Below are positions 4,367-58,711 of a DNA stretch of 64,000 nucleotides, piece after piece. Origin of the DNA: a virus (lineage: Duplodnaviria > Heunggongvirae > Uroviricota > Caudoviricetes); the IMG/VR virus record IMGVR_UViG_3300026382_000001, one strand, 5' to 3'. Position numbers and translations under genes: made by a program. Numbering within the stretch: the first letter of the stretch is position 1; the number at the start of each line of letters is the position of its first letter. The notes beneath the pieces were generated by a model. That model saw nothing but the letters and a program-made list of their open reading frames with translations. It ran no database searches and was not told the origin of the DNA.

Positions 4367-4436
4367 ATCTTCTCCTTTATGTTTCTTTAGTGATATGTCT
4401 TATTATATCTATATAATCTTTATGTAGATACTTAGT

Positions 4437-16917: not shown

Positions 16918-18048
16918 TTAGTTTGTTAGGTATGGTTTTACTTGTGTTAAAACTTCTCTAACATCTTCAAAATATCCTATTCGAATAATTCTTATATCGT
17001 TTTTAATACAATAATCGGTTTTAATTTTATCACATTCTTGAGTTTTCAAGAACCCTTCTAAACCACCAAAATATCCAATCGGTTCATAATGTTGTTTACC
17101 ATCATACTCAATGACAGTATTTAAATCTTCTAAATAAAAATCAAATCTATAATTATCAAAGAGTTTAACTTCTTGAGAATAATTAATATTATTCTCTTCT
17201 AGAAATTCTCTAACTTTTCTTTCTCCTTTGGATTCAGAGCATTTTGGACATCCATGTCCTTGAAGGTGGTTAGATTTGGTTTGTAAAAATTCTCCATGTT
17301 TTGAACATATTATTGGAATTAAAGAATTTAAATTTGTAGTATTATTCAAAAGTGAATAATCGTATTGATTACCATGAACTTTTTTAAAATTATTTATATT
17401 TTTTTCGGGTGTATTCATATTTTTTAAAATTCCACACTTTGGACAACCATTTCCGGAATTATGACTATTTGGAAGTTGTAAGAAACTTCCATGTTCCGGA
17501 CATATAATTTCTACTTTAGTATTGGAATCTATATAATTAACTTTTGAATAATCGTATTTATCTCCATGAATTTTTTTAAAATTCATGGTAATATTTTTGG
17601 TATTATTTGTATTTTCAATTCTTTTTTTAGATGCTTCTATCTTGGAGCATTTTGGGCAACCATGTCCTTTAAGATGAGAACTAGGAATTTGATCAAATTT
17701 ATTATTACAGGAATTACAAATTATTTTAACTTTGGTACTTCTATTAATATATTTAACTTCCGAATAATTGTATTTATTTCCATGAACTTCTTTAAATCTT
17801 TTTAAAATTTCTTCTTGTGTTAAACTTTTGGTACCTTTATTACCGGTTCTAGAAATTTTTCTAGAACATGCCGGACACTCAGAACCATTTTTAAAATTAA
17901 TAACAGTTGGGTAAAATTCACCATGTTCCGAACAAATTATAATGCATTTTTCCCGCATTTTAGAATATTTAAATTTACTATAATCGTATTTTGGATATTT
18001 TTCTTTAAGTTCTTCTAAAACTTTTATTGGATCGTTATAAAATGCCAT
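16918..18048 (-). CDS. Zinc-repeat homing-type endonuclease
   Basis: Four repeats plus FDFY...IEYDGKQH. Confidence 0.85.
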   Translation of the reverse strand: MAFYNDPIKVLEELKEKYPKYDYSKFKYSKMREKCIIICSEHGEFYPTVINFKNGSECPACSRKISRTGNKGTKSLTQEEILKRFKEVHGNKYNYSEVKYINRSTKVKIICNSCNNKFDQIPSSHLKGHGCPKCSKIEASKKRIENTNNTKNITMNFKKIHGDKYDYSKVNYIDSNTKVEIICPEHGSFLQLPNSHNSGNGCPKCGILKNMNTPEKNINNFKKVHGNQYDYSLLNNTTNLNSLIPIICSKHGEFLQTKSNHLQGHGCPKCSESKGERKVREFLEENNINYSQEVKLFDNYRFDFYLEDLNTVIEYDGKQHYEPIGYFGGLEGFLKTQECDKIKTDYCIKNDIRIIRIGYFEDVREVLTQVKPYLTN

Positions 18049-18077: not shown

Positions 18078-19241
18078 TTACTTAGAATATCTTTCGATAT
18101 CTTTTGTTAAATCTACTTCTTCGCTATCTAATGATAATCCCGTATGACTCGCTTTCAATGTTATATTTACTAAACTTTCCGCTAACGATGCGACAGACAT
18201 TTGACCAACTTTACTTCCTGGATACAATTTTAAATCCTCTACTGCTTTAGGATTATAACAAGTTTTACAAATACCATCTCGAGCCTGACAATAAAGAGGG
18301 CTTCTTAATTTAACGTTTTTACCTAAATAACTTTCGTCCTCATGATCTATAGTATTACCATTATCAAGAATCCTACCTTTAAGATTAAATAAGATTTTTT
18401 TACCATCTTTACCTTTTGGTATTTTAAATTCAAAATATTTTTTAGTACCACAGTCATTTAATTTAGATAAGTTCAGTGTTTCCATAATAGTATAAAGTTG
18501 TCTAATTAAATAACCAGGTTTAGCAGTATTCATTGATTTAGAATATAATGATACAATACCTTGAGAACTATAATTAAAGAATTGAGTTTTATCTAATCCT
18601 TCCGAATGAGCTTTAAGAATAACATCATTAATTTCTCCTTTAGCATTGATACTTAAACCAACTCCTAAAAGAAGTTTACGTATATCAGATACCGAACCTT
18701 TTGAACCAGAATCGATTAAATCGGAGACAGATATATTATTTTTACGAAAATATTCCATAACTTTTTCAGCAAGTTTATCTAATTCTTTATTGGCCTTAAT
18801 AATATCTTTTTCTTTTTTAGGAGAATTTTCATATTGTAATTTAATACGTTCTTTTTCTTTTTTAAATTCTTCTGGAAGTATCATACTCTCTGGAGAAAAG
18901 GAACTAGGTTTTAAAGTACTTAAAAAGAATCCAATTTCATAAACTAATTGATATTTCCAAATAAAAACGTCATCTTCAAAAACATCAAACATATCAGCAT
19001 ACAATTTTCCAATATTATCTTTATTTAAAGGAAATTTAATTTTAACTTTATTTTCGAGAACTTCGTTAAGCATTTTACGTACCAATTCTTTATCTAAGAA
19101 TCCATTCTTTTTAATACTTTCAAGTATTTCTTTTCTAAATATATCTTTAGTTTTAAAAAACCATTCTGGTGGTCTAAAAGCATTTGGTATAATTATTTTA
19201 GAGTTATATAATCTTGTACTATTTTCTATATTAATTGCCAT
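18078..19241 (-). CDS. rpoC: RNA polymerase beta' C-terminal subunit (putative virion RNAP)
   Basis: DSGSKGS; EGLDKTQFF...TAKPGYLIRQL (bridge helix); DCGT; LRSPLYC...GICKTCY; trigger-loop-like ITLKASHTG. Confidence 0.88.
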   Translation of the reverse strand: MAINIENSTRLYNSKIIIPNAFRPPEWFFKTKDIFRKEILESIKKNGFLDKELVRKMLNEVLENKVKIKFPLNKDNIGKLYADMFDVFEDDVFIWKYQLVYEIGFFLSTLKPSSFSPESMILPEEFKKEKERIKLQYENSPKKEKDIIKANKELDKLAEKVMEYFRKNNISVSDLIDSGSKGSVSDIRKLLLGVGLSINAKGEINDVILKAHSEGLDKTQFFNYSSQGIVSLYSKSMNTAKPGYLIRQLYTIMETLNLSKLNDCGTKKYFEFKIPKGKDGKKILFNLKGRILDNGNTIDHEDESYLGKNVKLRSPLYCQARDGICKTCYNPKAVEDLKLYPGSKVGQMSVASLAESLVNITLKASHTGLSLDSEEVDLTKDIERYSK

Positions 19242-19483
19242 TATATTCTCCTAATTCCAGCAGTTGCCATAAACGCTTCAAAATCATCTTCGTTAATTAT
19301 TTTTGAAGAATTCATTTTTAAATTTTGTACTAATGAAAAACTATTATATATTTTTTGCACTTTATTTTTAGAACCAGTAGTATCATTTGGTAATGATACT
19401 ATAAAATCATCATTTTCCAAAATAATATTATTTTGAGCAGCCTCGGATAAATCATCTTTAATAATATAATTACTAGAGAAGCT
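19241..19483 (-). mobile_element. Putative split intein, N-fragment
   Basis: Starts with Ser (SFSSNYII, block-A-like) exactly where beta' homology breaks. Confidence 0.7.
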
Positions 19484-20680
19484 ATCTCCACCGATTGGAG
19501 CATAAATTAAACTAGGTACTATAAGTTGGTACTGTACTCCAGTTAGTATTAATGGTTTAAAAGCCCACCAAGATACTGGAGTCCAACCAGGATCCCTTTT
19601 AGTAATTACCCTAATTTCTGAATTATCATTAAATATATCGGTAAGTAACTGAATCCATAATTCTTCGTGATGTGGATAAGTATTTAAGTACTCTTCTGTA
19701 TTTCTATAAATATATTCTAATTGTTTTCCAATATCATCTATAAGTAATTCTTTCATTCCTAATTTTTTAGAAACTTCCTCATATTCTGGTTTATTTAAAT
19801 AAGCTATTACAAAAACATCAAACATTATTAAAAGACCTTGCCAAGGAAAAGCGGCACTATCAGCTGGAATATCTGGCTGAGCATTTGCAACATATCTAGC
19901 TACATTATCAACACGCTTACCAAACAGAGAGGCATTAAAGAAACCATCTTTAGAATTTAATTTATCTAAAAAATATTCATAAAGTGTTTGAATATATCTT
20001 TGAACATATTCTTTTTTAGAAGTATTTTTATAAATACTTTGAATTACTTGTTCGAATTCATTTTGTTCATTTTTATCTAAATCTTTAATCCAATCCTTAC
20101 TTTCATTAATATTTACAATTTTTTTATAAATATCCGTAATTTCATCTTCTTCTACCATTCCATGTTTATTAGAATAATTTCTATATCCTATTGGAATTAC
20201 TGGTATTTTATCTATAATAATTAATTTTTTATCTTGTTGTAATAAATCAACAAAGTCTTTATTTTTATCATTTTTGTATTTATTAAAGTTAATCTTGTCC
20301 CAATTATTAATAAGAAAACTAACACCGTTTCCTCCAGAAGAACCTTTAGAAGCATCAGCATCTTCTAATACTCCATTGACAATATTACATTTAATTGCTT
20401 TATTAACACATTTGTTAAATAATCCTCCGAGGGAACCTATATTTTTATATACGAATGGGTGAAGAACTGGTTCCTCTAATTTTATATAAGCAAATTGATC
20501 AAAAATTTCTCTTGAACTAAAACCGAATATACTGGCATCGTAAAAACTTCCAGAATTTGGAATTAATTCATTATTAGCATCTCTTGTAAATGTTTTAGCT
20601 GTTTTTATAGCTCTGGTTTGATTTGGACCAGATTCCGGAGAGTTTACAAACTTCTCCATATTTAATAATTTCATTGGCAT
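19241..20680 (-). CDS. rpoC: RNA polymerase beta' N-terminal subunit (putative virion RNAP) ending in an 80-aa intein-N-like tail
   Basis: YDASIFG, IPVIPIGYR, LFGKRVD..ARYV, KRDPGW; homology stops at YAPIGGD, the first Asp of DxDGD. Confidence 0.87.
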   Translation of the reverse strand: MPMKLLNMEKFVNSPESGPNQTRAIKTAKTFTRDANNELIPNSGSFYDASIFGFSSREIFDQFAYIKLEEPVLHPFVYKNIGSLGGLFNKCVNKAIKCNIVNGVLEDADASKGSSGGNGVSFLINNWDKINFNKYKNDKNKDFVDLLQQDKKLIIIDKIPVIPIGYRNYSNKHGMVEEDEITDIYKKIVNINESKDWIKDLDKNEQNEFEQVIQSIYKNTSKKEYVQRYIQTLYEYFLDKLNSKDGFFNASLFGKRVDNVARYVANAQPDIPADSAAFPWQGLLIMFDVFVIAYLNKPEYEEVSKKLGMKELLIDDIGKQLEYIYRNTEEYLNTYPHHEELWIQLLTDIFNDNSEIRVITKRDPGWTPVSWWAFKPLILTGVQYQLIVPSLIYAPIGGDSFSSNYIIKDDLSEAAQNNIILENDDFIVSLPNDTTGSKNKVQKIYNSFSLVQNLKMNSSKIINEDDFEAFMATAGIRRI

Positions 20681-20706
20681 TGGATTGTTTCCTTTTGTAT
20701 TTTCTT

Positions 20707-21603
20707 TTATTTAGAAGCTAAATATTTAGTATAATTATAATTATTTTCATTTTCCGGACGAATATGAATATCTTTGATAGGTGTTTTAAAAACACTAGTA
20801 GCATTTCGAATCGTTTGGGCATCTGGATTAGTATGATGCATTTTATAATAATTCTGTTTTAATTGAGCGTCGGTATCACCTTCTGGTATATTATGAAATT
20901 GATATTTTCCATTACCTTGTCCAATTTGATGAGCTAGAGATAAATTGGTCATTTCTGGTCTACTTAATTTAGATACATCTACATCGCTAACATATTTACC
21001 AAGTTCTTTATTATAATGTAAATTTTTGGTTGCATTCTCTACCCACGGCATAGTTTCTTTATGAAGTACTCCATCACGTAATCCACGTTTTAAATCAGTC
21101 GTAGCAGTATCATTTGTAAATTGATACAACCCTTGAGCAGTGGTTGGTTTAACTCCATTTATAGGAATATTTCCACCATGTGTGTATCCAGAATTTTCAG
21201 TTTGTCCTAATCGAACCTGCCAATCATGTGTATTTTGAACGCCTTGCTCTAAAGTTCCTTTACTTATTCGAAATGGTTGATTATGTAAACCAACGTCTCC
21301 GTTCATACCATTTCGAATAATTTCTACCGAATCATTATCGAAGTATGGATAACGTTCTGGAATTACGTTATTTTCTGGATGATCTGCACTCGGAATAGGT
21401 TTAATTGGTGGAAATGGTTCTCCTTGAATATCTGGATCTTTATCAAGTATTCTTTCATTTTGAATATAATGTTTTAACGGAGTTCCAGCTTTTTTAACTT
21501 TTTCAAAAGCGGCATCATTATCAACATCATTCTCAGACCAATGGTCCATCATGTATTGCATATAATCTTCTAATAATAATTTTTTATTTAATTCTAATTT
21601 CAT
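20707..21603 (-). CDS. Putative internal virion protein with a lysozyme/transglycosylase-like motif
   Basis: N-terminal MKLELNKKLLLE propeptide-like motif; TTAQGLYQF resembles the SAxGxYQF lysozyme-fold signature. Confidence 0.55.
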   Translation of the reverse strand: MKLELNKKLLLEDYMQYMMDHWSENDVDNDAAFEKVKKAGTPLKHYIQNERILDKDPDIQGEPFPPIKPIPSADHPENNVIPERYPYFDNDSVEIIRNGMNGDVGLHNQPFRISKGTLEQGVQNTHDWQVRLGQTENSGYTHGGNIPINGVKPTTAQGLYQFTNDTATTDLKRGLRDGVLHKETMPWVENATKNLHYNKELGKYVSDVDVSKLSRPEMTNLSLAHQIGQGNGKYQFHNIPEGDTDAQLKQNYYKMHHTNPDAQTIRNATSVFKTPIKDIHIRPENENNYNYTKYLASK

Positions 21604-21665
21604 TTTAATCTCTTTTGATTTTATATAAGAATTAGTTCTTTTAATTAAAATTTGCTCCTTTAAAA

Positions 21666-21705
21666 TACTTTAAAATAAGTTATTTATTATATAGATATCT
21701 TATAA
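21666..21705 (+). promoter_or_regulatory. Phage promoter (same consensus as 4692)
   Basis: TACTTTAAAATAA-N11-TATAGATATCTTATAA. Confidence 0.85.
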
Positions 21706-21747
21706 TCAGTAAAGAGTTGAATCATTAGCAAAATGATTTATTTTTAT

Positions 21748-21800
21748 AGCATAATCCTAATGCTGGATATACCTCCGATAAAGGAGAAGAAGGAGTTATT
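21748..21800 (+). promoter_or_regulatory. Leader motif copy 4
   Basis: AGCATAATCCTAATGCT...CTCC-GATAAA-GGAG-AAGAAGG. Confidence 0.7.
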
Positions 21801-22037
21801 ATGGCAAGTAATCAAAATATTAAAAATCATAAAAATCATAAAAATGGGAATCGTCCTCAAAGACGAAACCCATATTCGCGATTAAGTGTAATAGCGATAG
21901 CCAATGCTATCGCATTTACTCAAAGTCGTTTGGAGAACGAATATTCTCCAAACGTAGTACGAGCTTACCATCAAGATCTTAGAGATCTTGGTTATGCTCT
22001 TATAGAGATTGCTAATGATGGTTTATACCAAAATTAG
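21801..22037 (+). CDS. Small protein with a basic Asn/Arg-rich N-terminus
   Basis: Has its own promoter, leader and terminator. Confidence 0.8.
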   Translation: MASNQNIKNHKNHKNGNRPQRRNPYSRLSVIAIANAIAFTQSRLENEYSPNVVRAYHQDLRDLGYALIEIANDGLYQN

Positions 22038-22045
22038 CAATCTCT

Positions 22046-22075
22046 AGGAAAGGATAGATATATCCTTTCCTTTCT
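22046..22075 (+). terminator. Intrinsic terminator
   Basis: GGAAAGGATA-GATA-TATCCTTTCC then TTTCT. Confidence 0.7.
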
Positions 22076-22127
22076 CTCGACAAAATAAAATAATTTTTAG
22101 AACATTCAGTGGAATTAAACGACATGA

Positions 22128-22172
22128 AAACTATTCATGGTGGTACCATGAATAGTTAACTATTAATAGTTA
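22128..22172. repeat. REP-like palindrome AACTATTCATGGT-GGT-ACCATGAATAGTT plus a 14-bp unit
   Basis: Covarying copy at 60988-61023. Confidence 0.8.
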
Positions 22173-22184
22173 TCTAGTTTATTA

Positions 22185-25181
22185 TTAATCTATATTTTTT
22201 AATTTTGGAGGTTCCGGAATACTTTGGGAAAGATTATTTTTCTCTTCTTCGTAATGAACTTCTTCCTCTGCTATTAAATTTTCACCTGCGCTTAACGTAT
22301 CTAAAGGATTCATCTTTTTAATTTTAGTTTGAACTCTTTTAATTTTTTTCGTAATTTCTGGAATTTCTTCTAAAATAATATTAGAAGAACTTAGAGATTT
22401 TTCAAGTTTCTTTTTATTAATAACTAAAACAACTTCGCTATTTTTTATTTCAATACTAATTCCAAAAAATTCTAAATTATTATTAGCTAAGAATCTTTGA
22501 ACACTCGTACTTACTTTAAAATTAAGACTTTGTAAATATCTATTAATAAGAGTTAATGAAATATTACCACTCTTTGAAAATTGATCCTTAATTTGATCCA
22601 GTAATTCAAGATTGTTTTTCATCATAATTGGATCAGATACATTTTCATTAAGCTGTAGTCCAATATCTTTCCATTCCCCTTTTAACATTAAAAGTACTAA
22701 TTCCCCAAATGGATGCATTTTAAGTACTTGGGTATAAAAAGTGGCATTCTTAAGATTTGTCATAGCTTTTGGTTTATCTAATTTATTATTTAAAATAATT
22801 GCCCAAAAAGTTTCTAATTCTTCCTTTACATTACTTACGAATTGCTCTATACTTAATCCAAGAGATTCCGTTAATTCTAATAAAGTAATTTCCGAATTAA
22901 AATAAACCATACGTCTATCTGAACTTGGATGTCTTGCTGGTACTTGACCATTACTAAACATCATTATATTTAATTTCTTAGTTTTAGATTGTGTGTCGAC
23001 TCCTTTCTTTTCAATAAGAAGTTTATCGGAACCAGTAATAAGTTTTAATGCATCGTTACTTTTTTGAGTACTAAAATCTCCTTCATCTAGAACCATTAAA
23101 GAACAACTTTCTAAAATACTATTAAAGTTTGACATAAGTCTATCCGTACTAAGAATTTTAGTAAACTCTGAATTTATATACCATTCTAAAATAGTACTTA
23201 CGAATAAGTTTTTACCAGCTCCAGGAACACCAAAGAATACCGGAATAGTTGGGAGTACATAATGATTAGCTGTAGCAGTTAACCAGTTAATAAACCACCC
23301 TAAATCACCTCTTTGTACTAACTGTAATATATATTTATATGTCCAAGGTGTTTTCTCTTTAAGCATAATAATGGTATCGTTTACTTCTAATTGCTCTGGA
23401 AATTCTTCTTTTAAAGTATCGTTAGCCGAATGAGCTTTTTCGTAATTTTTACTTGGTACCCAAAGATTTACAAACTTAATAAAGTTTCTTTGAAAGACAG
23501 TTGGTTTACCTGGTTGAAATTCTTCAAAAGCTTCTATAAGAATTTTTCTTTCAAAAGCTCTAGCAAATTCTTTTTGAAATTCAAAATCAATATCAGTAAC
23601 ATTTAATTGATTACTAAGGACATGATTTGCTAACATTACCATACCATCAAATGAATAAACTTCTCCAGAATCAATATGTCTAATAATACAAGCTCTATTT
23701 TTATTAGCTAATCTATAATAAACATAATCATCCTGATTAATTTTATCAATAAGAACTTCGATTAGTTCATCCATTTCCATTTTTTCAAATTCTTTACGAT
23801 CAGCCTTCTTGAATTTAATTCCGGCTAAATCAGCAATTTTATTAATTGCGTCACCTTTATTAAGTTCATGAACTTTCATAAATGCTTCAACTATACTATA
23901 TGATTGATTATCGTGGAAATCTTCGAATTTTAAAGAATTTTTATAAATTGCCATACTTGGTTTAGTCTCTTCGTGAAATAGACAATTAATTTTCCAATAA
24001 CTACCATGATCTTCGAAATTAACATCTGGGAACAGAGCTGCTAAATTAAAAATACCATCCTGAATCTTTTGTTTAAGATTTTGTACTAATTCGTACTCAA
24101 GTGGATTAGTATTTAAAATATTTAAATTATTTTTATTCTGAGCTAAATCAATTCGCGCATCTTCAGCTAAAATATCTTTTGGAAACATTAAAGCTTGTGT
24201 ATTTTCGCTAAGCTTTTGAAAACTTTTAATAATACCAATATAGTAATCTTCGTAACTTTTCTTTTGAATATCCGTATATCCGCTAGCTAAAATTTCATTA
24301 TCTATCTCAGTAATGATTTTATTGAACTCTAATTTTAAAGGATCTTGATTAAAGAAATCAAATATCCCAGTGGTTCCAATAGTATGGAATGTTGGAATAT
24401 TTCCATACTTTTGGTGAACGATACCAGCAGCTCTTTGAGTATGAGAAATATCTTTAAATGATGCATCAAAATCCATAATAATTTCAGAGAAATTACCCAT
24501 AATATCTTTAACGAGAACTCCAAAAGTTTTCTTACCAAGAATAGCACCAAGTCTATTAAAAATTAACTTTGCATCCCCAGCATATAAATCTTGGTCAAAA
24601 TCAAAAGCTATTTGAATTCCCCCACCAGTTACCATACTGAATGAAGGAATTATTGATTCAAAACCATGTCCTTTCAATAAAGAAAATAATTCTAAATAAC
24701 TTCTAATAATTACCATCTTTTGATAATTTTCTTCTAAAGAATAAACATGAAATCTTTCTTTAGTTCCTTTGATATGTGCATCAATATCAAGTACAATAGT
24801 ATTTAATTTTTTAAAAGTATTGATACTTGGTGCTTTTACATTACCTTTTTCATTAAGGTTTTTTGGATCGTATTCAAAAATTCCGGTACTTATCGAAATA
24901 CCACAATCATGATGAGGCAAAGAAACTATTTTATTTTTTAAATAGTTTATTAAATTATTTGGGTTCTTTAATTGAACATTATCTGTAATTTCAAAATCTT
25001 TTATATTTTCATATTTTCCACGAATCTCTTGTTTAACTTTAGCTTGAAAAACTATTCTAGCTGTTTCATCTTCTTTAAAATCATTAACTTTGAATATTTT
25101 ATTCCAGTAAGTTATGATATCTTGTTCGTTCATAATTTGAGTAAAATTTATTTCTTGATTATTTTGAGGTGCAGATTGCAT
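22185..25181 (-). CDS. Primase-helicase (primase-like N-terminus, CHC2-like zinc finger, SF3/D5-like helicase)
   Basis: VLDIDAH and TGGG in the N-terminal domain; CLFHEETKPS; GVPGAGKNLF (Walker A), VLDEG (Walker B), MFSN, SDRR. Confidence 0.85.
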   Translation of the reverse strand: MQSAPQNNQEINFTQIMNEQDIITYWNKIFKVNDFKEDETARIVFQAKVKQEIRGKYENIKDFEITDNVQLKNPNNLINYLKNKIVSLPHHDCGISISTGIFEYDPKNLNEKGNVKAPSINTFKKLNTIVLDIDAHIKGTKERFHVYSLEENYQKMVIIRSYLELFSLLKGHGFESIIPSFSMVTGGGIQIAFDFDQDLYAGDAKLIFNRLGAILGKKTFGVLVKDIMGNFSEIIMDFDASFKDISHTQRAAGIVHQKYGNIPTFHTIGTTGIFDFFNQDPLKLEFNKIITEIDNEILASGYTDIQKKSYEDYYIGIIKSFQKLSENTQALMFPKDILAEDARIDLAQNKNNLNILNTNPLEYELVQNLKQKIQDGIFNLAALFPDVNFEDHGSYWKINCLFHEETKPSMAIYKNSLKFEDFHDNQSYSIVEAFMKVHELNKGDAINKIADLAGIKFKKADRKEFEKMEMDELIEVLIDKINQDDYVYYRLANKNRACIIRHIDSGEVYSFDGMVMLANHVLSNQLNVTDIDFEFQKEFARAFERKILIEAFEEFQPGKPTVFQRNFIKFVNLWVPSKNYEKAHSANDTLKEEFPEQLEVNDTIIMLKEKTPWTYKYILQLVQRGDLGWFINWLTATANHYVLPTIPVFFGVPGAGKNLFVSTILEWYINSEFTKILSTDRLMSNFNSILESCSLMVLDEGDFSTQKSNDALKLITGSDKLLIEKKGVDTQSKTKKLNIMMFSNGQVPARHPSSDRRMVYFNSEITLLELTESLGLSIEQFVSNVKEELETFWAIILNNKLDKPKAMTNLKNATFYTQVLKMHPFGELVLLMLKGEWKDIGLQLNENVSDPIMMKNNLELLDQIKDQFSKSGNISLTLINRYLQSLNFKVSTSVQRFLANNNLEFFGISIEIKNSEVVLVINKKKLEKSLSSSNIILEEIPEITKKIKRVQTKIKKMNPLDTLSAGENLIAEEEVHYEEEKNNLSQSIPEPPKLKNID

Positions 25182-25213
25182 TATTGTTTTCCTTATCTTA
25201 TTAATATTTATAT

Positions 25214-26101
25214 CTATAATTTGTATTCTAAGAATTCCTCTATATTATTAAAATAATATTGTGGTATTCTTATAAGTTTTATATTGTTCTTTCTACAATA
25301 TTCATTTTTTATAAAATCTCTTTTTTGAATAATTTTAAAAGTTTTTTCTCCGCCAAAATATTTTATTGGTTTAAAATGTTGTTCTCCATCGAATTCAATA
25401 ATTACGTTTAAATTTGGTAAATAAAAATCAAATGGTAAAACTTTTTTAAATTTACAATCTTTAAAAATTTTTTCCTGAATATAATTTATATTATTTTCTT
25501 CTAAATAATTTCTTATTTTATTTTCACCAAACGAATTTTTGCATTTCGGACAACCATTTCCATTTCTATGATTCATCGGCATTTGAAAGAATTTCCCATG
25601 TTCCGGACAGATAATTTCTACTTTAGTCGTAGTATTTTCATATTGTACTTTTGAATAATCGTATTTATTCCCATGAACTTTTCTAAAATCTTTTATAACT
25701 TTATCTAAGTTTTTTCTAGATTTATCATTAGAACATTTTTGACAACCATACGATAAATGTCCATTTGGTTGTTGAAAAAAACTTCCATGTATCGTACAAA
25801 TTATTTCGATCGGTGTTTTGGAATCTTTATAAATTACTTTCGAGTAATCGTATTTATTCCCATGAACATTTTTAAAATCTTCTATAACTTTATCTAAGTT
25901 TTTAAATTTATTAATTTTGGCACATTCTTGACATCCATTTCCATACATATGATCTTTAGCCGTTTGTAAAAATTCGCCATGTATTGGACATATTATAATT
26001 AATTTATTAAAAATTCCAGTATATTTAGATTTTGAATAATTATATTTATCTCCATGTTTATTTATAGAACGTTTTATAAATATTTTAGTATTTAAAGCCA
26101 T
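25214..26101 (-). CDS. Zinc-repeat homing-type endonuclease directly downstream of the intein-C gene
   Basis: Three repeats plus LPFDFY...IEFDGEQH. Confidence 0.85.
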   Translation of the reverse strand: MALNTKIFIKRSINKHGDKYNYSKSKYTGIFNKLIIICPIHGEFLQTAKDHMYGNGCQECAKINKFKNLDKVIEDFKNVHGNKYDYSKVIYKDSKTPIEIICTIHGSFFQQPNGHLSYGCQKCSNDKSRKNLDKVIKDFRKVHGNKYDYSKVQYENTTTKVEIICPEHGKFFQMPMNHRNGNGCPKCKNSFGENKIRNYLEENNINYIQEKIFKDCKFKKVLPFDFYLPNLNVIIEFDGEQHFKPIKYFGGEKTFKIIQKRDFIKNEYCRKNNIKLIRIPQYYFNNIEEFLEYKL

Positions 26102-26110
26102 ACCAGTATC

Positions 26111-27325
26111 CTATTTAGTAGCGTTATATAACCCTAATTGACTGTCAGTCTTTACACCCCAATTTTGTATATTTAAATTAGCAGGATTAACGAATTTCGT
26201 TTTATTAGTAGCACTAAAATTTTCAGAAGCTTCTTTAGCTGCTTCTTTAGAAAATAATGCCATTGCCGCTAGGATATCACCATCAGAGTTTTTCAATAAT
26301 GGTAATCCGTCCAAATAAAAGTTATGAGCATTATCATTTTCCATAACTAAATCAACCATTTTTAAATTATCTTGATTTACCTGAACTTTTTCAAATACTA
26401 TATCAGTACACGGAATTAATTCAATTTCCCCAGAGTTTATACCAACTGGATCTAAATTATTTTCCATACTTCTAATATCATTTATATCATTATAAAATTT
26501 TAAGTACCTGGTTTTAATTTGACCATTTATTATAAAATATTTTAAATTTCTAAATTTAAATTGTAAATCTTTTAAAATATCTAACTCATTTTCTTTTATT
26601 AATAATTTATATAAGTATGAACTGAACTTATATCTTACTATAAAATTTTCATCTTTTTTACGAATACTATAACTAGCTTCCAAAAGATTAAAAATTAAAC
26701 CAACGCTATATAAATTGATATTTTCTGGTATAATTCCAGAATTTTTAAATAATTCTGTTAACCCTAATAAAAATTTATAATTTGAATTTACTAAAATACC
26801 TTTGTTAAAACTAACTTTATTATTTTTAAAAGTTATAAAATTACTTATGAATATTTTTTCAGTCTCGGTAAAATTTTTAGAAAATTGAAATGATTCATCA
26901 GAATAAAGTAAATGTATAATAATTTCTTTAGCAAAAGAATATGTTAATTTAATTTGAAATTCTTTATTATTATTTTTATCTTTAATAATTAAAATTTCAT
27001 TATTTCTTTTTTGAAACGAGTACTTCCAAAATAAAAAATAATTATCTGGATCACGTTGTATTTCTGTAACCGTTGGGGCCTGTAATTCTAAGGTTTCTTT
27101 ATTAAGAGTGATTATAGATTCTTTTTCAGAAATTCTAAAATCGGTTTTTTTATTAAAGAGACCTAAGTTAATTCTATTCTTATGAATTCCAAAATCATTC
27201 TTACTTAGGATTCGGTATTGTATTGGTACTTCGTGGATACTAGTACCAATAATTTCTTGAGTTATATTTTTAGTTTCATGTACTTTATTAATTGTTTCTG
27301 TACTTATGACTTTTTTAAAAGACAT
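26111..27325 (-). CDS. rpoC: Intein-C fragment fused to the 58-aa RNAP beta' catalytic-loop segment (SDGD...LGLYNATK)
   Basis: Block F/G MVDLVMENDNAHNFYLDGLPLLKN|S; extein aligns with bacterial beta' DGDQMAV...EAQLEA...SPAN...VLGLYYMT. Confidence 0.85.
   Translation of the reverse strand: MSFKKVISTETINKVHETKNITQEIIGTSIHEVPIQYRILSKNDFGIHKNRINLGLFNKKTDFRISEKESIITLNKETLELQAPTVTEIQRDPDNYFLFWKYSFQKRNNEILIIKDKNNNKEFQIKLTYSFAKEIIIHLLYSDESFQFSKNFTETEKIFISNFITFKNNKVSFNKGILVNSNYKFLLGLTELFKNSGIIPENINLYSVGLIFNLLEASYSIRKKDENFIVRYKFSSYLYKLLIKENELDILKDLQFKFRNLKYFIINGQIKTRYLKFYNDINDIRSMENNLDPVGINSGEIELIPCTDIVFEKVQVNQDNLKMVDLVMENDNAHNFYLDGLPLLKNSDGDILAAMALFSKEAAKEASENFSATNKTKFVNPANLNIQNWGVKTDSQLGLYNATK
26288..27325 (-). 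mobile_element. Putative split intein, C-fragment (~346 aa)
   Basis: Terminal Asn followed by Ser+1; block F; degenerate block-B-like FRISEKESII and endonuclease-like FLLGL segment. Confidence 0.8.
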
Positions 27326-27383
27326 TTTTGTTTCCTTTATTTCGTTGTAAAATCTTCTTGTTTCTTATTCATTAATATATCTA

Positions 27384-28277
27384 TTAAGCTGTATATCTAC
27401 TAGCAGCTACTTGATTATTATTTCCATGTAGTATATGTTGACCCTGTCCACCAATAAGTCCAGAAGCTTTCCATAATGATTGATCATTATTTCCAAATAC
27501 TTTTAAATCATTTCTACGTTTATTAATACTTTGATTTACTTCTTGAGCGTTTTGTGATTTATAATCAGCTAACCCCACATTTTGTCCATTATTGAAATTA
27601 TCTACTTCTCTTTGAGTATATAAATTTGCATCTACCTGTGCTTGTTGAACAGTCGGAGAATTTAATTTTTCCGTCATTGGATTAAATTTTTTATCTTTAT
27701 TAGCATTTAATAAATTTTTTCTTTGATCATTTGGCATACTTTCAAAAGATTTTACTCTTTCATTTGTAATTCTGGTATTTGGATCAATTCCTTCTGGTAT
27801 TTTCTTACCTTGTATTTCGGCATACTTTTTAGCTGGAATATCAATTGAATTTGAGTATTGTTGTGTTTTCAGAAGTTTTCTTTTTGTATCCTCAATATTT
27901 CTATATTTTTCAATATTTTCGCTATGGTCATCTATTTTAGATTGGATACCTTTCAATACCTTTTCTTTTCTTTTAGAATTTTCGATATTATAAGTTTCGT
28001 AATTTTTATTATCTTTACTATATACTGGATCATAAGAACTATTTTTTCTAATATTATATTGAGTTTGAATTTTTTTCATATTTTGTTCTGAACTTTTTCT
28101 TAATTTCTTTGTACTTAATAAAGATTTAAAACCACTTGATAAAGTAGCAGCTAATTTAGAGCGATTTTCATTTTTCACTGGTTTAAGTTTACCTTTAGTA
28201 CCAACCGTCTTTTTAAACCAAGCTCCCGGCCGTTGAATTTCTTCAATTAATGAACTTTTATTTATATTTAATATCAT
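27384..28277 (-). CDS. Putative internal virion protein (basic)
   Basis: N-terminal MILNINKSSLIEE motif. Confidence 0.6.
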   Translation of the reverse strand: MILNINKSSLIEEIQRPGAWFKKTVGTKGKLKPVKNENRSKLAATLSSGFKSLLSTKKLRKSSEQNMKKIQTQYNIRKNSSYDPVYSKDNKNYETYNIENSKRKEKVLKGIQSKIDDHSENIEKYRNIEDTKRKLLKTQQYSNSIDIPAKKYAEIQGKKIPEGIDPNTRITNERVKSFESMPNDQRKNLLNANKDKKFNPMTEKLNSPTVQQAQVDANLYTQREVDNFNNGQNVGLADYKSQNAQEVNQSINKRRNDLKVFGNNDQSLWKASGLIGGQGQHILHGNNNQVAASRYTA

Positions 28278-38388: not shown

Positions 38389-38445
38389 TTTCATAGTTAT
38401 AGTTCCATAGATATTATTACTATTAAAATAAATTAGGAAAAAAAT

Positions 38446-54100: not shown

Positions 54101-55642
54101 ATGATTACATTAAATTTTAAAGAGTACGAGAGAGTGGATGAGTTACCCGAAGTAACCAATCCGGCAATATACACAAGTAATAAACACAATATCTTTAGCA
54201 AAGATTCATTATATTCCGAACAGATATTTGGACCATTGAAAAATTATAAATGCCAATGCGAAAAATTATTTGGAAGAATTAATGCTGGGGAAGTTTGTGA
54301 TCTTTGTGGAGTTGAATGTGGATTAAGCGATAAACGTAATTCCCAATTTGCTAAAATATTATTACCCGAAGGTATATATATTATAAACCCAGATTTTAAA
54401 AATGCTTTGCAAGAGGTATTTGGTTTTAACGCTATAAAAAATTTATTAAATAAATTTCAATATAACGCTAATAAAGAAAATCCATATATTTATAGTCTCA
54501 GTAAAGAAAAATTATTGAGAACCTCAAAAATATCAGAAAAGGAAATTGGTAATTGTTTAGTTGATTTTCCAGTATTTGATATTAATTCATTAAGATTATT
54601 ATTTAATTTTCTTAAAGATGAATTAAAATCTGAGTATTACTCGATAAATGAAGAAACCGGAGAAGTAATTGAACATCCAGTTACCGAAGAAGAAAAATTA
54701 GAGGAACGTTATAAATTTAGACATTTAATAACTGATAAAATTAATTATAAATATATCAAACATATTTTTATTAATTATATTTTAGTAACTCCTCCTGGTT
54801 CAAGACAGGTTATTAAAATTTCAAACGTAAAAATTATACCACATCCTATTTCAAAAGCTTATATAGAAATACTTAAAAATATTTCTAGAGGTACTAGTAT
54901 TATGGATAATCTTTATAACGCTAATTCAGATTTCTTTGGAAATACGGTATATAAATACCAGCAATCAGTTGACGCTATTTATGATGAAATTCTTCAATTT
55001 AACTTTCAAAAAACTAAGAATTATGTTAGGGAATCATTGACTGGTAAAACAATTGAATTCTCTCAGAGAGCTGTAATTGTTCCTAATCCAGTTCTTAAAC
55101 CTTATCAAATTGGTCTTCCGGAAGAAAGCGTTAAGAAATTATTCTTACCTGAGTTACTTAGATATTTATTTCTTAAGTATGAAGAAAACGAAATTGAAAT
55201 TATAGAAAAAGAGGGGGAAGTTAAATTATTTAGTATAGTTGAATACATTCAATATGTATATGATAGTTTTGATAAAAACTTTGAAATAGCTATACCAGAA
55301 GATGATTTAAGTGATTTTCTTAAAAATTATATTTCTGATTTTAAAATGATTGTTGAAAGACAACCAAACTTATATAAGTGGAGTATGTCTGGATATATGT
55401 TAGCAAGAGCCTATGGGGATTCTAAAAACGAAATTATAGAAATACCGGAATTAGATGGATTATCGGATGATGAAAGATTATTGTATTTTGAAGCACTGCA
55501 AGAAGCTCCAGAATATGTTCGAAAAGGTATTTTAGAGAATAGACCAATGATGAAAATATTTCAAAATAATATGAAATTAGCAGTTACAAAAATTTATAGG
55601 GATAAGATAAAGGATATTTATGGAGAAACAACTAATTCTTAA
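54101..55642 (+). CDS. rpoC: RNA polymerase beta' N-terminal subunit (putative non-virion RNAP)
   Basis: LYSEQIFGP, CQC...CDLC zinc finger, VTPPGSR, SLTGKTIEFSQRAVIVP, ERQPNL. Confidence 0.9.
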   Translation: MITLNFKEYERVDELPEVTNPAIYTSNKHNIFSKDSLYSEQIFGPLKNYKCQCEKLFGRINAGEVCDLCGVECGLSDKRNSQFAKILLPEGIYIINPDFKNALQEVFGFNAIKNLLNKFQYNANKENPYIYSLSKEKLLRTSKISEKEIGNCLVDFPVFDINSLRLLFNFLKDELKSEYYSINEETGEVIEHPVTEEEKLEERYKFRHLITDKINYKYIKHIFINYILVTPPGSRQVIKISNVKIIPHPISKAYIEILKNISRGTSIMDNLYNANSDFFGNTVYKYQQSVDAIYDEILQFNFQKTKNYVRESLTGKTIEFSQRAVIVPNPVLKPYQIGLPEESVKKLFLPELLRYLFLKYEENEIEIIEKEGEVKLFSIVEYIQYVYDSFDKNFEIAIPEDDLSDFLKNYISDFKMIVERQPNLYKWSMSGYMLARAYGDSKNEIIEIPELDGLSDDERLLYFEALQEAPEYVRKGILENRPMMKIFQNNMKLAVTKIYRDKIKDIYGETTNS

Positions 55643-55915: not shown

Positions 55916-56136
55916 TGAATATCGAGACCAAAAAATATTTTATAGAGACTTTTTCAAATGGAGATGGTATAACCATAACGGTTGATAAAAAATGGGCACT
56001 TGATAAAAAACATGATTTTTATTGGAATCCAATTACTAATATTCTTTTAATAGAATATATTTTTGGTAATAAAAGTAAAACAATAAAAACAACCTGTGAA
56101 AATTTTGGTTGTATAAATATAAAAGGAATAACATGA
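55915..56136 (+). CDS. Hypothetical protein
   Basis: Translationally coupled (TAATG). Confidence 0.6.
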   Translation: MNIETKKYFIETFSNGDGITITVDKKWALDKKHDFYWNPITNILLIEYIFGNKSKTIKTTCENFGCINIKGIT

Positions 56137-56381
56137 CAGATGCTATTTATGTAATAGATGGAAAAGAATATCCATTTAGTATTAGAGAAAATCTCGAATT
56201 AAAATCAGGTCATTTATATTTAAATGATAAAAAAGTATTTGATACATTTAGACGAGGTAGTAATATTATAAACAATATTGTTACTTTTAATGATGTTGAT
56301 ATAACAAGTTACGGAAGAGAATTATTTAATATCCCAGAGGATTATAATAATCACTTCGTTAGAGTGAGTATAAGAGCTTAA
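56133..56381 (+). CDS. Hypothetical protein (start revised)
   Basis: ATGA overlap and AAGGA RBS. Confidence 0.6.
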   Translation: MTDAIYVIDGKEYPFSIRENLELKSGHLYLNDKKVFDTFRRGSNIINNIVTFNDVDITSYGRELFNIPEDYNNHFVRVSIRA

Positions 56382-56382
56382 T

Positions 56383-56877
56383 ATGAAACAGGACAATACT
56401 TTAAATAAATGGACACGCGAATTTATTTCGTGGAGTTTTATAATACTGGTCATTTATTTTTGGACGGTATCGTTGGCTATTTTATTTGGTTTAGTGATTA
56501 TTTTTGGTATTCTTTTTTATGGAATATATAAATTATTCAATCATATTTTAAACTTCCAAAATTTTGAATTAGCCAGAAAAAATAAACCAAAATGGTTTAT
56601 TTTTGGAAATAAACTCTATAATAAAATAGTGGATTATATAGAGCAAAAAGTTAAAGAAAAATCAAAAATTTCAAAAAATGAAATTATTTCGGCTATGGAG
56701 TTTTATGATTTTTATGAAATAGAAGAAGTTACTAAATATGAAATAAAATATAGATGGAAAGAAGTACAAAAAATATGCCATCCCGATTCTGGAATTAGAC
56801 CAAACGTTGAGAAAAGTCAATTGGCTAATAAGTATAAAGATATATTATTAGAGGCGGTAAAACAACGAAATGATTAA
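56383..56877 (+). CDS. Membrane-anchored J-domain-like protein
   Basis: N-terminal TM; C-terminal EIKYRW...KICHPD. Confidence 0.65.
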   Translation: MKQDNTLNKWTREFISWSFIILVIYFWTVSLAILFGLVIIFGILFYGIYKLFNHILNFQNFELARKNKPKWFIFGNKLYNKIVDYIEQKVKEKSKISKNEIISAMEFYDFYEIEEVTKYEIKYRWKEVQKICHPDSGIRPNVEKSQLANKYKDILLEAVKQRND

Positions 56878-57241
56878 CAATATAAACCATAATAAAAAAA
56901 GATTGTTGAATTTAATACCTGATGATAAATTAGAAAATTTTATTAAATTTACAGATCGTAATGGGGACTTTGTTCCACGATATTTAAAATTAATTAAAAA
57001 TGATTGTGATTTAGTTCAGGAAATTAAATTATATTGGGATGAAAATATTAGTTGGTTAGATGATGAAATATTTAATAATATATATAATGATCTTTTTCAA
57101 TTGAAATGTATATGTTATTTTTTTGAGTACTCGTTAGACGATTTACAATGTAATAATAAAATATGTGAAAATTTAGTTTGGCTTAAACATAATATTCCTG
57201 AGAGTTATTGTTCTAGTAATTGTAGAAAAGTGATGAGATAA
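56870..57241 (+). CDS. Cys-cluster protein paralogous to the N-terminus of the next gene
   Basis: DDLQC...C...YCSSNC versus DDLQC...C...FCSLNC. Confidence 0.65.
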   Translation: MINNINHNKKRLLNLIPDDKLENFIKFTDRNGDFVPRYLKLIKNDCDLVQEIKLYWDENISWLDDEIFNNIYNDLFQLKCICYFFEYSLDDLQCNNKICENLVWLKHNIPESYCSSNCRKVMR

Positions 57242-57253
57242 AAAGGAGAGTAA

Positions 57254-58711
57254 GTGAACTACACCTTTGAAAAATATTTTGATAAACGTGGAATATTAAA
57301 TTCCAGTTTATTAAAAAATATAACAATTGAGGAAAAAGAAACGGTTGAAAATTATTTTACCGAATTAAAATTAAATGAAATTCAAGATATAAAAACTGAT
57401 ATCCGTTCAAAAGTTTCATTTTATTTAAATCAATATTCTAAAGATGATTTACAATGTAAAGGAGACAATTGTAATAAAATGGTAAATTTAGCTAATTCTC
57501 GTCCTGGAAGTTTCTGTAGTTTAAATTGCAAAAAGGGAAGTTCTTATTTAGCTAATATTGGTAAAGAAAAATTCTCAGATGCAAGTAGATATAAACAAAC
57601 CGAGACTAAGTTAAAAAAACTCTATGGAGAAAATGCCAAGTATCTATTAAATAAGGAATTATTTATAAAAGAATTTTTAATAGAAAAGGATGGGACTAAT
57701 GAGTGCGATTATACAAAAATAGAAAATATTCTTGGTATAAAAAAAGGAACTGCTCAAAAATATATAAGAAGGTTTGGGTTGGATGTAAAGACAACCCTTG
57801 GTAATCCTGGAACAACCGAACAAGTAATACAGGATATTTTAAATAATAGTATAAAAGCAACTATTTTAAAAAATAGTCGCAAAATACTTTCTAATGGAAC
57901 TGAATTAGATTTTTACTTACCAGATTATAATTTTGCTATAGAAACTAATGGAGTATATTGGCATAGTTATGGAGGAGAAGATAATAAACAACATCAGTTA
58001 TCAAGACATTCTATTAAGGTAGAGGAATCTTATAAAAAAAATATTCATTTATTTCAAATAAATGAAAATGAATTATCAGATGAAAATTTAAAAAGTATAT
58101 GGGAATCTAAAATATTATTAAAATTAGGTTTATTTTCAAGAAAAATATTTGCTCGAAAATGTAAAATAAAAGAAATTTCCTCTAAAATAGCCAAACAATT
58201 TTTAGAGGAAAATCATTTACAAGGGTATGCATATTCTAATATTAAATTAGGATTATATTTTGAAAACGAATTAGTTTCCATTATGACGTTTGGAAAACCT
58301 CGATTTAATAAGAAAATTGATTGGGAATTAATTCGGTCAGCTTCTTTAAAAAATACCTTAATTGTTGGTGGAGCTAGTAAACTATTTAAATATTTTATTA
58401 GACACTATAATCCTAGAAATATATTAACATATGGTAATTGTAGATGGGTAAATAAAAATAATATTTATGATATCCTTAATTTTTCTTTTATTGAAAAAAC
58501 TAAACCAAGTTATTATTATTTTAAACCATCCGATTGGAAATTACATATGATACATAGGAGTCAGTTTCAAAAACATAAACTAAAAAACTTGGAAGAATTT
58601 AAAGAAAATTATTCGGATGATTTGACGGAAGAAGAAATTGTTTTAAATAGCGGCTATAGAAAAATCTGGGATGCAGGACATCTTAAATATATTTGGACAA
58701 AGGAAAATTAA
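57254..58711 (+). CDS. Hef-like homing-type endonuclease between the two non-virion beta' genes
   Basis: ELDFYLPDYNFAIETNGVYWHS; ENHLQG; IVGGASKLF; IWDAG. Confidence 0.85.
   Translation: MNYTFEKYFDKRGILNSSLLKNITIEEKETVENYFTELKLNEIQDIKTDIRSKVSFYLNQYSKDDLQCKGDNCNKMVNLANSRPGSFCSLNCKKGSSYLANIGKEKFSDASRYKQTETKLKKLYGENAKYLLNKELFIKEFLIEKDGTNECDYTKIENILGIKKGTAQKYIRRFGLDVKTTLGNPGTTEQVIQDILNNSIKATILKNSRKILSNGTELDFYLPDYNFAIETNGVYWHSYGGEDNKQHQLSRHSIKVEESYKKNIHLFQINENELSDENLKSIWESKILLKLGLFSRKIFARKCKIKEISSKIAKQFLEENHLQGYAYSNIKLGLYFENELVSIMTFGKPRFNKKIDWELIRSASLKNTLIVGGASKLFKYFIRHYNPRNILTYGNCRWVNKNNIYDILNFSFIEKTKPSYYYFKPSDWKLHMIHRSQFQKHKLKNLEEFKENYSDDLTEEEIVLNSGYRKIWDAGHLKYIWTKEN

Follow-up and report, generated by a model that had tools for sequence, protein, structure and literature searches.

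The 64,000-nucleotide stretch described here (the window) is part of a 167-kb virus contig, IMG/VR record IMGVR_UViG_3300026382_000001, with a G+C content of 24-32% and a CheckV completeness of approximately 59%. The contig encodes two multisubunit RNA polymerase (RNAP) gene sets, like those of phiKZ- and AR9-like jumbo phages. In the first of these (set 1), the N-terminal part of the beta' subunit (beta'-N) is divided over two separate genes, each of which encodes one stretch of the polymerase subunit (an extein) fused to one part of a putative split intein (Table 1). The N-extein is followed by the N-terminal intein fragment (Int-N), while the C-terminal intein fragment (Int-C) precedes the C-extein. 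The two genes lie 5.4 kb apart on the same strand, with the C-half gene upstream of the N-half gene, and no contiguous copy is present in the contig. The intein is positioned between the first Asp and the next residue of the Mg-binding DxDGD loop. Among phage proteins, set 1 beta'-N is closest to gp275 of 201phi2-1, a homologue of phiKZ gp180, which was found in virions by mass spectrometry, and set 1 is therefore taken to be a virion-type enzyme.

At the N-terminal junction, Asp399 of the GGD motif ends at position 19484 and Ser400 starts at 19483. At the other junction, Int-C ends in LPLLKN, with Asn346 ending at 26288 and Ser347 (Ser+1) starting at 26287. An earlier reading of this DNA from its letters alone (the original prediction) had placed both open reading frames (ORFs) and both of these boundaries exactly, to the nucleotide. 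A group I or group II intron, or trans-splicing at the RNA level, was ruled out as an explanation of the break, as each gene forms a full ORF, from its own start codon to its own stop codon, and explicit intein signals are seen at the protein level.

Table 1. Features of the split beta'-N locus and of the two RNAP gene sets, in window coordinates.
Feature	Position	Strand	Remarks
beta'-N gene, 479 aa	20680->19241	-	N-extein, 399 residues, and Int-N, 80 aa
N-extein, beta'-N residues 1-399 of the virion-type RNAP	19484..20680	-	ends ...APIGGD (first Asp of the Mg-binding loop)
Int-N, 80 aa	19244..19483	-	Ser1 start (block A, SFSSNYII); stop codon 19241-19243
Int-C/C-extein gene, 404 aa	27325->26111	-	Int-C, 346 aa, and C-extein, 58 aa
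Int-C, 346 aa	26288..27325	-	block-B-equivalent S66-S70, His31, degenerate LAGLIDADG-like domain, block F Asp325, block G Lys345-Asn346
C-extein, 58 aa	26114..26287	-	SDGDILAAMA... to ...LGLYNATK; last two Asp of the catalytic triad; stop codon 26111-26113
Set 1 beta subunit	38083->34970	-	
Set 1 beta' pieces	27325->26111, 20680->19241, 19241->18078	-	
Set 1 beta'-C subunit, 387 aa	18078..19241	-	Rpb1 domains 4 and 5; phrog_2962, E 7e-22
Primase-helicase, 998 aa	22185..25181	-	CHC2 zinc finger and DUF5906; conserved gene between the intein halves
Free-standing homing-endonuclease-like gene, 295 aa	25214..26101	-	DUF4379/DUF723 zinc-ribbon repeats, weak Vsr-like DUF559 match; phrog_559, E 1e-73
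298-aa gene between primase and beta'-N	20707..21603	-	weak transglycosylase-like match; phrog_4067, E 3e-4
ATAGATAT motif, promoter-like	27377..27384	-	52 nt upstream of the Int-C gene start
Set 2 RNAP beta' pieces	54101-55642 and 58693-60759	+	non-virion type

The two exteins correspond to consecutive parts of a known protein. The N-extein matches bacterial beta' as far as the strand preceding the catalytic loop NADFDGD (phmmer against beta' chains of the Protein Data Bank (PDB), E 3e-8, query 150-356), and it matches phrog_2986 with an E-value of 5e-28. The C-extein aligns with the last 53 residues of RpoC1 of Listeria phage LPJP1 at 37% identity and with the same final Lys (E 2e-5, a value that applies to that single comparison). 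In the intein-free beta'-N proteins of jumbo phages, the motif is found in one piece, as GADYDGD in LPJP1 RpoC1 and as TADFDGD in 201phi2-1 gp275, and the proteins end 50-60 residues later. When the exteins are joined, as the original prediction had proposed, a protein of 457 aa with the loop GGD-SDGD is obtained, which aligns across the loop with both of these homologues and has the same end residue as that of LPJP1. Removal of the insertion, in other words, restores a contiguous, conserved host protein. The position of Ser+1 is occupied by Phe or Tyr in the intein-free homologues, so that the Ser is kept for the intein and not for the polymerase.

A family of proteins related to both halves was recovered from public data. 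A word-indexed search of 5.8 billion proteins yielded 74 relatives of the 404-aa protein (all 381-458 aa in length) and 37 of the beta'-N protein, and a HMMER profile search, run exhaustively over 1.84 billion cluster representatives, brought in further members. All 37 beta'-N relatives carry GGD followed directly by Ser and then a tail of 44-90 aa, while Asn followed by SDGD is found in 111 of 111 full-length Int-C relatives. Int-C varies in length from 341 to 388 aa in this split family. An alignment of 41 sequences, reaching down to approximately 30% identity, showed Asp325 (block F), Asn335, Asn346, Ser+1, the DGD motif, His31, and Ser70 to be invariant. Several hallmarks of a class 1 intein are thus present: a nucleophile at position 1 (Ser), the block F Asp, the terminal Asn of block G, and a Ser at position +1.

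The arrangement in two genes recurs in independent assemblies, including contigs of 224-290 kb. Since it does so with invariant junction residues, it is neither a chance observation nor an assembly artefact. One could still suppose that a beta'-N gene was broken and that the two genes are its decaying relics, or that they are the product of misassembly, with a functional copy elsewhere, and the incompleteness of the contig leaves room for such a copy. Set against this, the N-exteins of close relatives are 82-91% identical and fully identical around the junction, all copies have open reading frames, and the more than 100 members of the family all retain the junction residues, so that we regard this explanation as close to refuted. 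The original prediction had named an intact DxDGD-containing copy of this subunit elsewhere in the genome as the sign of such relics; neither another virion-type beta'-N nor a second contiguous DxDGD of set 1 was found in the 167-kb contig. In a six-frame scan of the contig, the single contiguous DxDGD in any ORF of at least 100 aa was NHDYDGD, which belongs to set 2 (window 58693-60759).

Set 2 encodes an enzyme of a different type, as the best PDB match of its beta'-C piece is chain 7S00_D of the non-virion RNAP of AR9 (E 8e-15). The beta' subunit of this set is also broken, approximately 20 residues upstream of NHDYDGD and without an intein. Its two pieces each seem to hold a copy of the preceding strand (KNEIIEIP and KNRVMELS), and they are separated by four unrelated ORFs (56109-58711), one of which encodes a 485-aa protein with a weak match to the Mom family.

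Sequence searches with the 404-aa protein returned little. No match was found in PHROGs or among the sequences of PDB chains, and the sole PDB match of the family profile, an ITPase, was judged spurious. A tblastn search of 50,697 phage records gave no match either, indicating that the element is absent from the cultured phages of that set. The predicted structure was more informative. An AlphaFold2 model of the 404-aa protein, built with 41 relatives, reached a mean predicted local distance difference test (pLDDT) value of 79.8 and a predicted template modelling score (pTM) of 0.78. Its best Foldseek matches were the endonuclease-bearing inteins PhoVMA, PI-PfuI, TliVMA, and PI-SceI (E 6e-6 to 8e-4, probability 0.91-1.00), and all matches up to an E-value of 5e-3 were inteins. 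Similarly, the top 33 matches in VIA-align were all inteins or other Hint-fold domains (Z 7.1-11.7), among them PI-SceI (Z 11.7; 257 residues aligned, root-mean-square deviation (rmsd) 4.7), the AceL NrdHF split intein (Z 11.5; 127 residues aligned, rmsd 2.8), and the fused Aes123 PolB1 split intein (Z 10.4). The targets were covered only from residue 21-46 onward, showing that the model lacks the N-terminal strands of the Hint fold. These strands are the part that an Int-N of 44-90 aa would supply, and the tail of the beta'-N gene product supplies them in the predicted complex described below. The Hint fold expected by the original prediction is thus the first match of the 404-aa model, with its N-terminal strands modelled as coming from the other protein.

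In the model of the whole 479-aa protein, the junction residues 395-403 have pLDDT values below 50, and in the tail a few short strands are seen, at middling confidence. The complex of residues 385-479 of this protein with the 404-aa protein was predicted with a pairing score (ipSAE) of 0.90 (0.88, 0.90, and 0.91 in three runs), compared with 0.00 for the best of three control pairs, although the score may partly reflect likeness to solved split-intein structures, which exist. The same mark was attained by 58 of 80 solved complexes and by 2 of 110 mismatched pairs. Partner pLDDT values were at least 68 in the complex, and at least 72% of the contacts agreed between runs. Residues 398-457 of the beta'-N gene product form the predicted interface with Int-C. 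Within it, the junction residues 398-409 contact residues 27-31, 60-70, 322-326 (block F), 338-341, and 344-347 (block G and Ser+1) of the 404-aa protein. The modelled complex thus favors binding between Int-N and Int-C, as the original prediction had assumed for this pair. The Int-N tails of the subclade to which the window belongs end in a conserved helix motif, F/W-E-x-F/Y-M/I ... G-I/L-R/K-K/R-I/L (the last approximately 20 residues, window 19244-19300, minus strand), which is absent from the shorter tails of distant relatives and lies outside the predicted interface.

The exhaustive profile search also uncovered three beta'-N proteins with a contiguous intein at the identical site. The largest of these, P0175 (915 aa), reads GGD/C at the first junction and CN/SDGD at the second, with two LAGLIDADG motifs in between (LAGLIDADG_3, PF14528, E 7e-12). 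The other two are P0174 (632 aa) and P0173 (604 aa), the latter with a mini-intein of 179 aa. These cis alleles have a Cys at intein position 1, where the split family has a Ser, and their carriers are sister lineages of the split-intein clade. Alleles of both kinds that the original prediction had thought worth looking for, uninterrupted and cis-intein, thus exist in related phages.

For an alignment with the cis alleles, Int-N and Int-C were fused virtually in five pairs, the two members of a pair always coming from one contig. Block A corresponds between the two groups, reading S-F-x-S/T-N in the split family and C-V/L-x-G-N/S in the cis alleles. The break of the split family falls approximately 45-50 residues past position 1, before block B. 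The original prediction had called the split atypical for its short N part (80 aa) and its 346-aa C part, and these dimensions hold; the alignment now locates the break ahead of block B, and the C-fragment encodes this block. Opposite the second LAGLIDADG motif of P0175, the window has FLLGLTELF (consensus of the split family FLLGILEGY); where the catalytic acid would stand, there is Tyr, Phe, Leu, or Ile, and the first motif is no longer recognizable in the split family. An active LAGLIDADG endonuclease has two motifs, each with a catalytic acidic residue, and Int-C does not have these. As both motifs are degenerate, the insert of the split family is best described as a decayed endonuclease domain.

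The fold, the predicted pairing, the invariant junction residues, the cis alleles, and the intein-free homologues agree with the original prediction of a split intein in the catalytic loop. We therefore consider it likely, with a probability of roughly 0.8, that the two genes encode a naturally split, class-1-type intein (Ser1, terminal Asn, Ser+1) in the DxDGD loop of a virion-type beta'-N, and that the exteins are joined by trans-splicing. The splicing chemistry in vivo is one that we infer. Int-N and Int-C would dock into one Hint fold, in which Ser1 would attack the carbonyl of Asp399 (N-O shift) and Ser+1 would take over the N-extein by trans-esterification. Cyclization of Asn346 and an O-N shift would follow, releasing a 457-aa beta'-N with a GGD-SDGD loop, which would then assemble with beta and beta'-C. 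The ligated product would yield a tryptic peptide spanning the junction, ...APIGGD-SDGDILAAMALFSK.

Several observations weigh against this reading. Pfam assigned neither of the two window proteins to a Hint, intein, or LAGLIDADG family, even at E <= 1; faint matches to PF14890 were obtained in a few relatives only. A further beta'-N copy may lie in the missing part of the contig (approximately 59% complete), and set 2 shows that a beta' broken near its catalytic loop can apparently work without an intein. In addition, some intein motifs are not canonical. The penultimate residue is Lys and not His. The absence of a penultimate His, pointed out by the original prediction, holds for the window and for the 90 of 111 relatives that have Lys, while His is present in 7 of the 111. 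Many working inteins also lack the penultimate His. The His of block F is replaced by Thr in 27 of 41 relatives, and departures of these kinds sometimes accompany slow or cleavage-prone inteins. Block B lacks its canonical Thr-x-x-His, the equivalent segment being S66-E-K-E-S70.

The missing block B His had likewise been noted in the original prediction, and it indeed seems to be absent. In the cis alleles, SENKS, SETNS, and SDENS stand opposite the segment SEKES of the window, which indicates that the whole intein lineage is devoid of the canonical motif. An alternative assignment of block B to T28-x-x-H31 was dropped, as most relatives have Ile at position 28 and block B comes to lie at residues 64-72 when the split family is aligned with the cis alleles. 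In the modelled complex, the invariant His31 is found at the junction interface, and it may compensate for the missing His of block B. The lack of this His, the frequent Thr in block F, and the penultimate Lys leave room for slow or unusual chemistry.

These same departures in blocks B, F, and G would fit an intein that no longer splices and serves as a docking module, with the beta'-N pieces held together non-covalently and the polymerase working with a nicked catalytic loop. The broken non-virion-type beta' of set 2, with its four intervening ORFs and no intein, shows that non-covalent assembly is tolerated near this loop. However, Ser1, Asn346, and Ser+1 are invariant in every relative, although the intein parts are only 15-38% identical, and Ser+1 replaces an aromatic residue that the intein-free homologues keep. 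Known RNAP structures further imply that an intein of approximately 49 kDa on the buried catalytic loop would clash with the active center. Ligation is favored over docking because the invariant nucleophiles are not needed for docking alone, and because such an intein could not be accommodated in an active enzyme. A docking module is therefore unlikely in our view.

The missing block B His and the penultimate Lys could also point to cleavage without ligation, as in bacterial intein-like domains, by which beta'-N(1-399) and a 58-aa peptide would be released as separate chains and then assemble. In some inteins, changes at the block B His or the penultimate position uncouple cleavage from ligation. 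Yet Ser+1, invariant in 111 of 111 relatives, is needed only for trans-esterification, that is, for ligation, and cis alleles at the identical site in contiguous genes make sense only if the exteins are ligated. We consider this outcome highly improbable, and trans-splicing remains the preferred reading.

To place the intein in its genomic context, six loci were compared: the window, L008, L011 (a 290-kb NCBI contig), L016, L017 (a 224-kb contig), and L018. Identity in Int-C falls to approximately 30% in the most distant of them. All share the order Int-C/C-extein gene, 0-2 small or endonuclease genes, primase-helicase (DUF5906), 0-5 small genes, beta'-N/Int-N gene, and beta'-C. As this order is common to all six, the permuted arrangement with the primase between the halves is ancestral to the clade. 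In the window, the start codon of beta'-C overlaps the stop codon (19241-19243) of the beta'-N/Int-N gene. The original prediction had drawn attention to an endonuclease gene between the halves, and this gene is present in the window. It is confined to the subclade of the window, though, and absent at the equivalent position in L016, where the primase gene directly follows the Int-C gene, and in L018; it is a late insertion, and the conserved intervening gene is the primase-helicase. The 298-aa gene is not conserved at the equivalent position in distant relatives.

A second endonuclease-like gene (376 aa, window 16918-18048, minus strand) follows beta'-C and is a paralogue of the 295-aa gene that follows the Int-C gene. 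In both, the DUF4379/DUF723 zinc-ribbon module is repeated, and the carboxyl-terminal end gives a weak Vsr-like (DUF559) match. Repeats of DUF4379/DUF723-like domains have been described for endonucleases in phage group II introns (PMC12350094). Near the RNAP cluster of relatives, precomputed Pfam matches point to anti-defence-type genes, namely, Acb2/Tad1-hairpin and Tad2-like matches in L016 (11926-12256) and Acb1 in L018 (6518-7201).

Across the five pairs, identity amounts to 28-38% for Int-C, 32-57% for the N-extein, and 15-26% for Int-N. The divergence of Int-C tracks that of the N-extein, which indicates that the two have long been inherited together vertically, under purifying selection. 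The split form probably represents an evolutionary trap and not a device for regulation. Such a trap could have arisen when a cis-intein gene had its 3' part relocated to a site upstream of the primase gene; with the halves at separate loci and the endonuclease decayed, no single deletion would remove the intein, and the process would act as a ratchet.

A regulatory role had been suggested by the original prediction, in which the promoter of the C-half gene would turn trans-splicing into an AND-gate or timing switch. The motif in question, ATAGATAT, occurs 31 times in the window against 10.2 expected copies (a three-fold enrichment), a number reached in 0 of 100 shuffles, and it is a candidate phage promoter core. 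In approximately nine cases, the motif is located 21-52 nt ahead of a gene start and shares its strand with the gene, and the genes so preceded include the Int-C gene, the primase, one endonuclease gene, and beta'-N of set 2. Sites are found, among others, at 4405, 12088, 16402, 18069, 25210, 27377, and 29688 on the minus strand and at 38407 and 54061 on the plus strand. The beta'-N/Int-N gene has no copy directly upstream of it, and its transcription may start from the primase promoter.

A signal of the same kind thus appears to serve both halves, and there is no sign of separate timing. The motif upstream of the C-half gene also precedes the primase, which leads into the N-half, as well as an endonuclease gene and the other RNAP set, and a timing switch based on a private promoter was judged unsupported. 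We also think it rather improbable that trans-splicing is an obligatory, selected maturation checkpoint, by which the virion RNAP would gain its catalytic loop only once both half-proteins meet. If it were, the enzyme would stay inactive up to a given point of infection or assembly, such as packaging into the capsid, and this control would have recruited the endonuclease-like domain that was retained, together with the conserved helix at the C-terminus of Int-N. In the minus-strand gene block, a gap of 580 nt (21604-22184) contains plus-strand copies of ATAGATAT at 21691 and 22054 and a plus-strand ORF (21801-22037, 78 aa), and may hold a small gene of opposite orientation.

The RNAP beta'-N is a new host protein, and its DxDGD loop a new site, for a split intein, which is widespread in a clade of uncultured jumbo phages. 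Public data contain more than 100 family members from this clade, in which no single gene yields the whole of the virion RNAP beta'-N, and annotation pipelines will call one "hypothetical protein" and one truncated beta'. At one and the same site, a graded natural series is found, from intein-free through a cis-intein with an active-looking LAGLIDADG domain and a mini-intein to a split intein with a decayed endonuclease and reversed gene order. This series should be useful for studying how split inteins arise and become trapped. For protein engineering, the family offers a large natural collection of cysteine-free (Ser1/Ser+1) split inteins with an unusual split site.

The original prediction knew of no described case, and our literature search, with most subscription journals outside its reach, likewise turned up no report of either a split or a contiguous intein that occupies the DxDGD loop of a multisubunit RNAP or lies in a jumbo-phage RNAP subunit. 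Among contiguous inteins, PI-SceI, PI-PfuI, and the Tli and Pho VMA inteins are the best structural matches over both the Hint fold and the insert domain, and the cis allele P0175 is of that kind. Unlike in these, the cut in the polypeptide of the split family follows the first 44-90 residues, and neither LAGLIDADG motif has kept its acidic residues. From the literature search and to our knowledge, no described natural split intein retains an endonuclease-like insert. The cyanobacterial DnaE and Nanoarchaeum PolB split inteins also have their halves at separate loci, depend on trans-splicing to make a catalytic subunit, and are fixed and vertically inherited, much like the family described here. 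They have a canonical split (Int-N of approximately 100-120 aa and Int-C of approximately 35-40 aa) and Cys1, whereas Ser1, Ser+1, and a large Int-C are found here.

Fractured genes with split inteins, including gp41-1, NrdJ-1, IMPDH-1, and others, were reported at 26 loci for eight enzyme types (Dassa et al. 2009, PMC2677866). As in those genes, an essential phage enzyme is broken at a catalytic motif by a split intein and adjoined by a free-standing endonuclease gene, and the weak DUF559 match of the 295-aa gene recalls the Vsr-like endonuclease family associated with them. RNAP is not among the eight enzyme types, and the term is absent from the text of that study. The order differs as well: the fractured genes run from N-half through endonuclease to C-half, colinear and adjacent, whereas here the order is C-half, endonuclease, primase-helicase, 298-aa gene, and N-half. 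Moreover, the endonuclease gene is a late addition of one subclade that distant relatives lack, and the split lies before block B instead of at the endonuclease insertion site. In typical split inteins, Int-N measures 100-120 aa and Int-C 35-40 aa, and in atypical ones Int-N measures 15-25 aa (PMC12707363). The AceL-TerL, GOS-TerL, and VidaL type from the same source resembles the present family in that Int-N is the smaller part, Int-C makes up most of the Hint fold, and the DNA is from uncultured phage-like sources. It differs in size, as Int-N here measures 44-90 aa and Int-C, which has kept its endonuclease-like insert, 341-388 aa. Finally, a putative Ser1/Ser+1 split intein was described in PolB of the Pseudomonas jumbo phage MIJ3, with an HNH endonuclease gene between the halves (PMC6892783). 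There, too, a polymerase gene of a jumbo phage is broken by a putative split intein with Ser chemistry, but the host protein is a DNA polymerase, the halves follow each other colinearly, and neither the split site nor block B (TEDH) departs from the canonical form, while in the family described here the host protein is an RNAP, the order is permuted, and both the split site and block B are non-canonical.

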